A stretch of 64,000 nt of DNA from Lophium mytilinum (taxonomy: Eukaryota): positions 1,069,566 through 1,133,565 of the forward strand of contig MU004195.1 in the NCBI GenBank assembly GCA_010093605.1. The letters are read 5' to 3'. This document shows, one piece after another, positions 1,362 to 4,339 of the stretch. The notes below the pieces were generated by a model. That model searched no databases, was not told where the DNA came from, and saw only the letters and a list, made by a program, of their open reading frames with translations. The position numbers and the translations under genes are program-made. The stretch's first letter is position 1, and each line of letters opens with the position of its first letter.

Positions 1362-2334
1362 CTAACAGCAGCCGCCCGCCGACCCGCTCTGGACGCCTTG
1401 GCCCTGGCCGATGGGGACGGTAGGCTTGTTGTTGACCGTGTTGGTGCCCATGCGCTCCTTGATCTGTCGGGCCATGGTGAGGAAAGCTTGTTCGACGTTC
1501 GTCGCGCTCTTTGCGGAGGTCTCGAGGAAGGGGATTCCGAGGCTGTCGGCGAACTCCTATAATTCATATATCAACATCTCTTCTTCAGCTATACTGTTCG
1601 CATATCCCTTCCACATACCTTTGCCACTGTGTACTCAACCACCTTCTTGTCCGCCATATCGGACTTGTTGCCAACCAGAAGCTTGTTCACGCCCTCAGTT
1701 GCGTAGCGGTCGATCTCTTGGAGCCACTGCTTCACGTTGTTGAAGGAGTCCATGTCGGTAACGTCGTAGACTACGCAGATCCCATGGGCACCGCGGTAGT
1801 ACGATGACGTGATAGTACGGAAGCGCTCTTGTCCAGCGGTATCCCACTGTACGGCCGCATGTCAGTATGCGCAGTCAGGTAGGCACGTGTAGAGGGGACT
1901 AACGATTTGTAGCTTGACAGTCTTGCCGTCGAGTTCGATAGTGCGGATTTTCTATGCTCATGTTAGCCGCATCTAGGCTGACTGGTCCGTATGCTCGTTC
2001 GGGGTTCAACGTACGAAGTCAACACCGATGGTGGAGATGTAGCTCTCCGTGTAGGTGTCGTCGGCGAATCGAAGGAGGAGGCAGGACTTTCCTACACCGG
2101 AGTCGCCGATGAGGAGGAGCTTGAAGAGGTAGTCATATCTGGACGCACGAGGCGGTCAGTATGGGATTTGCGACGAGGCTGATAGGACATCGATATTGGC
2201 TGCGCAGGTGTCTGTTGGGGTAACTCTATAGAAGGAGGTGTTAGTATGAAGACTTATCCCGCAAGTTCACCAGCTCCCACCGGGGAGGCAGAAGGCGGTC
2301 GTGGATTCAAGGGTACGTACTACTCGGGATTCAT
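1362..2334 (-). CDS. YPT1: Rab1/Ypt1 small GTPase
   Basis: [42 protein letters not shown] and NKSD motifs, C-terminal GGCC prenylation site. Four intervening sequences, the first complex. Confidence 0.98.
2139..2323 (-). other. Putative spliceosomal twin intron (stwintron, [D3,4] configuration) in YPT1
   Basis: Minus strand reads GA|GTA[GTACGT...ACTAAC...TATAG]AGT...ACTGAC...CCAG|ATATGAC. Removing 2226-2320 creates donor GTAAGT of a 90-nt intron, and removing that gives GAA TAT GAC TAC (E-Y-D-Y). Confidence 0.8.
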
Positions 2335-3069: not shown

Positions 3070-4339
3070 CTACATCACCTTGTTGAAGGCGGGAATGAGG
3101 GTCTGGGCGAGCCAGAAAGAGAAGACGAGCTTCGGCCCGGTCATGAGGAGCTTGGGCGTCAGACCCTTGAAGAAGCTGGAGAAGCCTTCGTTCTTCATCA
3201 TGTTGGACACAATCCGGAATCCGCTCTCGGGGTTCTCGAAGTTCCTATTCTGGATTCGAGTCTTGATGACATCGAGGGGCGCAGACACGAGGAGTGACGC
3301 GCTGGCACCAGCGATGGAGGCGACGAAGTTCTGGCTCCACGACGCGGCGTTATAGTCCGTCAACTTGTAGTAGTACTGCTTAGCAGCGGCCGAACCTCCG
3401 AAAAGCTAAAACAGTGTTAGATAGACTCTCTGATAGGATCTTTCGTGTGGACCTACAGCGAATGAACCCGGGGCATTGCGAGCAGCAGTCCATCCCCAAC
3501 CTCGGTAGAGTCCAAAACCCTCGTCTTTAATGATTGCGATGAGCCCTCGGCCTCTGAATGCCTCCGGGTTGGTCTGTCGCTTGATCTTCAGAACGTCGAG
3601 GGGTAGAAGAACGATCTCTCCAATACCGATCAAACTAATAATCCTGTTAATGCCGCATTCGAGGTGCCAGTATAATTGCGGCATACCTTCCAGCCGTGGC
3701 ATGCATTATAGCCTTTCCATTGCCCTTCCCAAACGCAGCATCGAATTCGTTGCCATGGTTCTTCGCTAGATAATCCCGTACGAAAGGCTGGCCTCCGTAT
3801 TTGTATACTCGTTGTAGCACCTGGCCCAAGTCAATGCCGATCTTCAATCCTATATGCATTCCGGGGTATCAAACCTTATAAGCAGCTGCGTAGCCGAGAC
3901 CGGGGAACAGCGAAAAGAATCGACCCGGGACTGAAGCGCCGGCCTTATCCTTGAATATGATCGTGTTGAGTTGGGCTGCAGAGGTGACCTAGGGGAGATA
4001 AGGGTCAGTCTCGAACTTGAGCAGATATTATTCGGATGTATGTACCTTGCCGTAGTTGCTCATGAGACGCTTTGCCGTTGTATCCACCTGCAAGCCCAAA
4101 TGTCAGAAGATGGGAGACGTGAGAGTCCTGAAGGTGAAAGTACCGGATGGAAGACCATCAACTCCGCAATACCGGCGCATCCTGAACATGTTAGTGGTGC
4201 CCATCAAAGACTTCTTCTGGGTCATACCTGCTCCAAGAACTCTAGCCGGAGTGGACTCCTTCTTGTATTCCTTCGCCGAAGAGTTGTTGGCGACGACTTC
4301 AGCGGCCTTCGAGGCAACATCTTTCGGGGAAGGGCTCAT
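3070..4339 (-). CDS. GGC1: Mitochondrial GTP/GDP carrier (Ggc1/Yhm1), 7 exons
   Basis: Three mitochondrial carrier signatures (HPVDTTAKR, LPLDVLKIK, APLDVIKTR) plus Ggc1-type QRVYKYGGQP and LTPKLLMTGPKLVFSF. Six GT-AG introns restore the frame. Confidence 0.93.

Follow-up and report, generated by a model that had tools for sequence, protein, structure and literature searches.

The ypt1 gene and its first intervening sequence

We analysed a stretch of 64,000 nucleotides (nt) of DNA from Lophium mytilinum (GenBank assembly GCA_010093605.1, contig MU004195.1, positions 1,069,566 to 1,133,565 of the forward strand), here called the window and numbered from its first letter. It carries, on the minus strand at 2334-1362, a Ypt1/Rab1 gene (ypt1) whose first intervening sequence is very probably a spliceosomal twin intron (stwintron), with one complete intron nested in the donor of a second. 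The five joined exons make an open frame of 606 nt, which encodes a protein of 201 amino acids with the N-terminus MNPEYDYLFK and a C-terminus, ...GGCC, that contains two cysteines. Its identity as Rab1/Ypt1 is indicated by a Ras-family fold (Pfam Ras is matched by exons 2, 4 and 5), by nearest named relatives that are annotated as Ypt1 (the exon 5 peptide is 91-95% identical to entries named 'GTP-binding protein ypt1' by NCBI, from many Pezizomycotina), and by the C-terminal double-cysteine prenylation motif. The start codon occupies 2334-2332, exon 1 ends with the GA of 2325-2324, and exon 2 begins at 2138 with A TAT GAC TAC. The three remaining introns are short (63, 57 and 62 nt) and have the donors GTACGT, GTTAGT and GTATGT.

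The first intervening sequence (Table 1) is built differently. Its genomic donor, GTAGTA, has no G at +5 and departs from the fungal consensus GURWGY, as given in PMC7138796, at positions 4, 5 and 6. The intervening sequence holds two canonical U2-type units, both complete with donor, branch element and acceptor, and the internal unit sits inside the six-base donor of the external one, between its nucleotides 3 and 4 (GTA|GTACGT...TAG|AGT). The entire complex sequence is missing from the mature mRNA, with the outer borders in use. A preliminary description made from the letters of this DNA had proposed just such an arrangement (a weak genomic donor GTAGTA, a complete nested intron of 95 nt, a rebuilt donor GTAAGT and an outer intron of 90 nt), and the sequence bears it out; its coordinates, checked base by base on the minus strand, are all exact.

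Table 1. Coordinates in the window of the ypt1 gene, the parts of its first intervening sequence and the upstream neighbour
Feature	Position	Strand	Evidence or remark
ypt1/Rab1 coding region	2334-2324, 2138-2015, 1951-1904, 1846-1619, 1556-1362	(-)	gene model, translation, RNA joints, Pfam Ras
Exon 1, coding part	2324-2334	(-)	ATGAATCCCGA; Met-Asn-Pro and the first two bases of the Glu codon
Whole intervening sequence, putative [D3,4] stwintron	2139-2323 (185 nt)	(-)	absent from mature mRNA; RNA joint, GT..AG ends
External donor, nt 1-3 (GTA)	2321-2323	(-)	genomic hexamer with the following bases is GTAGTA
Internal intron	2226-2320 (95 nt)	(-)	GTACGT 2320-2315; ACTAAC 2245-2240 (branch A 2241); TAG 2228-2226
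External donor, nt 4-6 (AGT)	2223-2225	(-)	joined to GTA after removal of the internal intron, giving GTAAGT
Rest of external intron	2139-2225 (87 nt; 90 nt with GTA)	(-)	ACTGAC 2160-2155; CAG 2141-2139; 3' border set by RNA joint
Mitochondrial carrier gene, upstream neighbour in the same orientation	3070-3705	(-)	open reading frames; Pfam Mito_carr on 3070-3405; context, outside the stwintron

The borders of the intervening sequence are fixed by RNA. Four public RNA runs, all of them consisting of assembled contigs, were aligned to 1250-2600 of the window. The joint 2138->2324, at which exactly 185 nt are skipped, is present in contigs of three runs from three studies (X1, X2 and X18); it has GT..AG ends on the minus strand and no positional ambiguity. 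X1 contributes a contig of 1129 nt with zero mismatches in exons 2-5, X18 one of 1131 nt and X2 one of 167 nt, and the X1 and X18 contigs also confirm the three further ypt1 introns. The contigs reach 2381, 2420 and 2428, so that the 5' untranslated region extends to at least 2428. At the junction the mature mRNA reads ...CCC GA|A TAT..., so that the joint ...CCCGA|ATATGAC, which the preliminary description had named as a check, is found in all three studies; its GA|A junction and the protein start MNPEYDYLF are likewise seen in the RNA contigs and in the translation. The same contigs dispose of the objection that a sequencing error at the intron borders had created the pattern, because they show the exact joint. 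An artefact of any other origin, whether in the assembly or sequencing at 2321-2323 or 2136-2139 or in a wrong gene model, can be virtually dismissed, as the RNA contigs of three studies agree with the exons at every base and as the GTR-GTNNGN start of the intron recurs in distinct sequences from independent assemblies (see below).

A second X1 contig, of 2955 nt, aligns to two short conserved stretches of exon (1506-1535 and 1659-1704, with 4 and 7 mismatches), which are separated in the contig by 61 other letters; rather than an isoform of ypt1, it most likely represents a paralogous Rab transcript from the organism itself.

Several other ways of reading the intron in the window were considered and rejected. 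The donor GTACGT joined to the distal acceptor yields GAG TAA, a stop; any acceptor that would place TA ahead of T GAC is not an AG; and a start at the ATG that spans the intron and exon 2 (ATATGAC) is out of frame. An acceptor-disrupted reading is ruled out by the lack of a donor after the internal TAG, and a recursive splice site (ratchet point) by the bases that follow the acceptor: in the window TAG is followed by AGT, and a GT after the internal acceptor occurs in none of the 47 sequences compared below. U12-type introns have a long, highly conserved minor-class donor motif and a matching minor-class branch consensus, which the donors GTAGTA, GTACGT and GTAAGT and the branch elements ACTAAC and ACTGAC do not fit.

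The split donor in related fungal loci

Scanning metagenome contigs with the exon 5 peptide gave 80 fungal ypt1 loci, of which the 50 with a start codon, exon 2 and an intron at the window's site were used in the counts. The other 30 were excluded. Exon 2 was not on the contig in 12 (L008, L016, L017, L022, L027, L044, L048, L057, L059, L068, L072, L077), and seven were truncated 5' of the start codon (L003, L006, L011, L043, L056, L058, L071), with the internal YAG|AGT still visible in L003, L011, L058 and L071 and GTR-GTNNGT in L058 and L071. Seven more (L018, L035, L050, L066, L076, L079, L080) were cDNA-like contigs with an uninterrupted frame of 200-204 codons that read GAA/GAG-TAC across the site and had no intron. 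The last four (L067, L070, L073, L074) were intronless and had different N-termini, namely MTGLSPDYDY (on contigs of up to 235 kb) and MNHEYDY (on an AT-rich contig); these represent lineages outside the MNPE group and are uninformative on whether outgroups have a plain intron here. A plain intron at this site was found in none of the 50 evaluable metagenomic loci.

When splits after any of donor nucleotides 1-6 were allowed, only the split after nucleotide 3 solved the sequences, except in two loci (L052 and L064). The strict pattern parses 45 of 47 distinct sequences, the window included; after 200 dinucleotide shuffles of the intron interiors the same parse succeeds in a mean of 6.45 of 47 (standard deviation 2.3, maximum 13). 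One of the two exceptions, L052, reads GTC|GTGAGT...CAG|AGT, the same design with a C at +3 and with no strict solution, and a further locus, L036, which starts ATGCAG CCT GA|GTG|GTGAGA, had been missed by the start-codon pattern of the strict count. With C at +3 of the rebuilt donor allowed and L036 added, the [D3,4] architecture (GTR + GTNNGN .. CTRAY .. YAG + NG[T/C/A]) is common to 47 of 48 distinct sequences, again with the window included; the comparison of ypt1 intron 1 across relatives that the preliminary description had suggested as a check thus returned the nested design, split after nucleotide 3, almost throughout. The sole variant, L064, has GA|GT|GTGAGT..75 nt..CAG|ATGT.. in its first ypt1 intron (about 2420-2720 of its contig) and splits after nucleotide 2 or 6; read as a [D2,3] split, it would rebuild GTATGT.

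The signals were tallied over the 47 distinct sequences of [D3,4] type, window included. Their genomic outer hexamers are GTAGTA (21), GTGGTA (12), GTAGTG (9), GTGGTG (3), GTAGTT (1) and GTCGTG (1), and not one of them has a G at +5, whereas this G is present in all 47 internal donors (most commonly GTACGT, GTAAGT and GTGCGT) and in all 47 rebuilt donors (GTAAGT 18, GTGAGT 12, GTAAGC 7, GTATGT 3, and six other hexamers together 7). Mean matches to GTRAGT are 3.0 for the genomic outer hexamer, against 5.2 for the internal and 5.6 for the rebuilt donor. The internal acceptor is CAG in 39 and TAG in 8, is preceded by a CTRAY element in all 47, and is followed in the relatives by AGT, AGC, TGT, GGT, CGT or AGA; the external unit has a strict CTRAY in 43.

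The rest of the intron, in contrast, has been randomised. Whole introns compared in pairs have a median identity of 0.577, as against 0.547 for shuffled pairs (95th percentile 0.60), clustering at 70% identity or above yields 38 groups, and the closest relative of the window's intron stands at 0.64. Because the interiors are saturated, the conserved signals cannot be merely inherited sequence. Length is a further constant: the intervening sequence measures 145-313 nt (median 179) against medians of 56.5, 59 and 71 nt for the other three ypt1 introns, with internal units of 54-183 nt and external units of 78-188 nt, so that neither half is shorter than these genes' ordinary introns.

A two-step model and its rivals

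The claim of a donor split between nucleotides 3 and 4, made in the preliminary description, agrees with each of the in-silico tests (the mRNA junction, the non-consensus outer donor, the nested canonical unit and the strict parse), and we consider it very probable that the first intervening sequence of ypt1 is a donor-disrupted stwintron of type [D3,4]. We propose that, by intron definition, which is described as the rule in these fungi (PMC7138796, PMC12403724), the nearest good sites would be paired first, GUACGU at 2320 with ACUAAC..UAG at 2245-2226, and 95 nt removed. The intermediate would then read ...CCCGAGTA|AGTTACC..., and the ligation would set AGU behind GUA to create the consensus donor GUAAGU directly after exon 1. 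A second U2-type reaction, through ACUGAC..CAG (2160-2139), could then remove the remaining 90 nt to give ...CCC GA|A UAU GAC... and the protein start MNPEYDY. The anatomy, the exact mature junction and the deep conservation of the six splice elements and of the split position are matters of observation; from them we infer that splicing starts with the internal unit, without direct cleavage at the outer GUAGUA.

The principal rival is excision in a single step, by which the 185 nt would be one long intron, GUAGUA would be cleaved directly, perhaps with U1 aided by the adjacent GUACGU, and the internal branch element and acceptor would go unused. This and several further points weigh against a two-step reading. 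The RNA shows the mature joint only: none of the four runs holds an RNA that lacks only 2320-2226, in contigs whose assembly loses rare or transient forms, and, as no contig covers 2170-2307 and the joint 2225|2321 is not listed, these runs are silent on the order of splicing. Tandem donors three bases apart (GYNGYN, which GTR-GTN literally matches) are used in animals, where the upstream GU can be cleaved and the cleavage site is separable from the position of U1 binding (PMC1779574, PMC11162779), so that direct use of GUAGUA is possible in principle. In the variant L064 the outer hexamer GTGTGA retains a G at +5 and may be read in one step. Four of the 47 external units have no strict CTRAY within 45 nt of the acceptor, with near-matches such as GCTAAA, GCTCAC and ACTCAC. 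The loci are related genes, so that the counts are not fully independent; this was mitigated by the removal of identical sequences and by the saturation of the interiors. Lastly, a loose [D3,4] pattern (GTR GTNNGN .. CTRAY .. YAG NGY .. CTRAY .. YAG), which has a single match in the real 64-kb window, at exactly 2323-2139, averages 1.95 matches, with a range of 0-7, when the window is dinucleotide-shuffled block by block (20 shuffles), and the nested motif by itself is no more than chance would provide. What lifts the design above chance is the coincidence of the motif with intron ends verified by RNA, together with its conservation in other fungi.

Excision in one step leaves much of the evidence unexplained: the CTRAY..YAG + NG[T/C/A] that stands in the middle of the intron in all 47 sequences while the interiors are otherwise randomised, a strict parse of 45 where shuffling gives about 6 of 47, and, in every lineage, a length about threefold that of the gene's other introns. 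It also casts the strong downstream site as a helper, whereas joining the internal donor to the distal acceptor would make codon 5 a TAA or TGA in 46 of 47 sequences, so that this site would be a trap. The ypt1 sites do not have the two in-frame GUs without a nested acceptor that mark a GYNGYN pair, and the RNA contigs hold a single mRNA form. We thus regard one-step excision as quite unlikely.

The stop codons could also be taken as a function. By a dual pathway, two-step splicing would yield the functional mRNA, and a competing one-step reaction or a slow second step would yield transcripts that are degraded for their stop at codon 5 and so set the Ypt1 dose. Besides the 46 of 47 mis-spliced forms, 41 of the 47 intermediates from which the internal unit has been removed would carry a stop at that codon; for [D1,2] stwintrons, missplicing in a single step has been documented (PMC12403724); and, as a lead only, the cDNA-like proteins P0161 and P0101 retain intron 1 sequence with introns 2-4 spliced. 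The stop, however, follows from the donor consensus (GTR + A) and needs no selection of its own, the remaining 6 of the 47 intermediates are stop-free, and no mis-spliced contig occurs in any of the four runs of assembled contigs. The dual pathway is very unlikely in our view, and a regulatory role for it is possible but unsupported. P0161 is a cDNA-like open reading frame, on a contig of 1289 nt outside the 80 loci, from which introns 2-4 have been removed, and it contains ..HRHHEPWVSWFRV.. and 44 residues upstream of YDYLFK. This would fit an exon 1 (final TGA read as W) that runs directly into GTG AGY.. with some 131 nt of intron retained, and P0161 could be either a captured stwintron intermediate or a case of intron retention in a species with a plain intron.

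For the two-step stwintron, persistence is most likely explained as a frozen accident: once the units were nested, the loss of any one of the six signals would be lethal in an essential gene.

Relation to known stwintrons, and breadth

Stwintrons are a known kind of system; the split class and the host gene appear to be new. The types demonstrated by 2020 were [D1,2], [D2,3], [D5,6] and [A2,3], to which [D4,5] was added as the 'first' of its type, together with [D6,7] and [D7,8] (PMC7138796); almost all known stwintrons are [D1,2] and the other types are rarely met (PMC12403724). The preliminary description had named [D1,2], [D2,3], [A2,3] and [D5,6] among the described classes, in line with PMC7138796, and had cited no report of either a [D3,4] class or a stwintron in ypt1. 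Neither was found in those parts of the open stwintron literature that were available, and the 2013 founding paper (Fungal Genet Biol) may have predicted the class. The stwintron group's open papers make no mention of ypt or Rab, nor of GTPase, a term for which PMC5639578 and PMC8469720 were not searched; searches of the literature on fungal ypt1 splice sites and introns and on nested introns returned nothing relevant. The very probable [D3,4] stwintron of ypt1 would add both a class of split and a host gene, and, with its split after nucleotide 3, would close a gap in the donor series [D1,2], [D2,3], [D4,5], [D5,6], to which [D6,7] and [D7,8] belong in a broad sense.

The closest parallels are two stwintrons described in PMC5639578: one of type [D2,3] in the biotin gene bioDA of Sordariomycetes and Botryosphaeriales, and one of type [D1,2] in the lipase gene lipS of three classes of Leotiomyceta. 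As in ypt1, a canonical U2 intron is nested there in the donor of a second intron and the structure is conserved class-wide in a conserved single-copy gene, its stability being attributed to the disabling of the gene by loss of an internal site. They differ from ypt1 in the host gene and in the split, which lies after nucleotide 1 or 2 and not after nucleotide 3. A standard intron replaces the lipS stwintron in Pezizomycetes and Orbiliomycetes (PMC5639578), while the ypt1 structure is present in a Tuber locus. The neighbouring split positions are known from a reticulon-like gene of Lipomyces lipofer ([D4,5]) and from rtnA of Pezizomycotina ([D5,6]), and seven Lipomyces species have at the site in the reticulon-like gene a longer two-unit sequence organised as [D4,5], [D6,7] or [D7,8] (PMC7138796). 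In these, as in ypt1, a six-base donor is split in its variable or 3' half and is rebuilt by the first ligation; unlike ypt1, for which the order is proposed from sequence, their two-step order was demonstrated by reverse transcription PCR of the intermediate (PMC7138796). Animal GYNGYN donors resemble ypt1 in that the intron begins with a pair of GUs spaced three bases apart, the upstream one being productive, but give two alternative in-frame mRNAs by one reaction each (PMC1779574, PMC11162779); in ypt1 the downstream GU belongs to a complete nested intron with a conserved branch element and acceptor of its own, and its use with the distal acceptor would bring a stop codon.

A first reaction that regenerates a site for the next is also a feature of recursive splicing, which takes place at ratchet points in Drosophila and vertebrates, and of the 'intrasplicing' of protein 4.1 genes. 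At a recursive site a whole GT donor comes right after the YAG, and the donor of the exon itself serves in the first step; in ypt1, by contrast, the rebuilt donor comes half from upstream and half from downstream of the ligation point, and the first step would use a different, nested donor.

The ypt1 loci with this structure are spread widely. Among the filamentous ascomycetes the Pezizomycetes, which include Tuber, branched off early. In L020, a neighbouring open reading frame on the contig stretch that holds the locus shares 95% identity with a protein of Tuber borchii; this locus and the near-identical L024 have GTA|GTATGT..161 nt..CAG|AGC..152 nt. The Ypt1 tails of eight loci (L054, L055, L060-L063, L065 and L069) are nearest to those of Sordariales and other Sordariomycetes, and the tail of the window's own protein is nearest, among named proteins, to Dothideomycetes (Phyllosticta and Saccharata 95%, Stagonosporopsis and Curvularia 94%). 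Most of the other loci could not be placed by class from the Ypt1 tail, since such tails are common to several classes. Because its carriers include Tuber, Sordariomycete-type and Dothideomycete-type loci, the ypt1 structure appears to be ancient, and the [D3,4] design seems, on this comparison of sequences, to predate most of the filamentous ascomycete subphylum. It also appears older than the lipS stwintron, because the Tuber locus carries it and Pezizomycetes have a standard lipS intron. Against a lipS stwintron confined to Leotiomyceta, that of ypt1 may be the oldest and widest example, and is apparently the most widely conserved stwintron so far. A fuller proposal, in which the [D3,4] stwintron predates the split of Pezizomycetes, has suffered no loss in some 48 sampled lineages and is kept as a kinetic gate or dosage control on the Rab of endoplasmic reticulum-to-Golgi transport, through its obligatory second step and stop-bearing forms, is unlikely in that complete form. 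Stwintrons are the main natural evidence of repeated intron scanning and definition by fungal spliceosomes, and serve as models for the birth and loss of introns; here the host is an essential, single-copy, highly expressed housekeeping gene. If its stwintron is that widespread, it is probably present in genetically tractable model moulds and its origin could be dated against outgroups.

In L020 (3100-3156), L058 (1104-1169) and L064 (3100-3155; coordinates approximate) a further intron follows ..ARQIK, within the part that corresponds to exon 5 of the window; it is absent from the other printed exon 5 sequences, and its position marks these three loci.

Many public ypt1 models of named filamentous ascomycetes (among the proteins P0003-P0169) have a wrong N-terminus or are fused to the upstream gene, and gene finders are evidently unable to handle the nested donor. 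Of 43 models fetched, from a sample in which clustering at 90% identity and a 'longer' length setting favoured aberrant models, so that it gives no error rate, 18 have an N-terminal extension ending in ..RYDYLFK, for which the 3' end of the intron has been translated as if it were exon; among them are models from Exophiala, Paracoccidioides, Hortaea, Cercospora, Drepanopeziza, Endocarpon, Hypoxylon, Xylariaceae, Apiospora and Aspergillus mulundensis. A Curvularia model that begins MNPEWYV is a read-through of GAG TGG TAC GT. Fused models combine Ras with aminopeptidase domains (1017-1165 amino acids) or with a mitochondrial-carrier domain (505-516 amino acids).

The window shares its upstream mitochondrial-carrier neighbour with models from Pleosporales. 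Fused public models from Paraphaeosphaeria, Stemphylium and Alyxoria (P0059, P0076 and P0078; Pleosporales and an Arthoniomycete metagenome-assembled genome) imply the same neighbourhood of carrier and ypt1.

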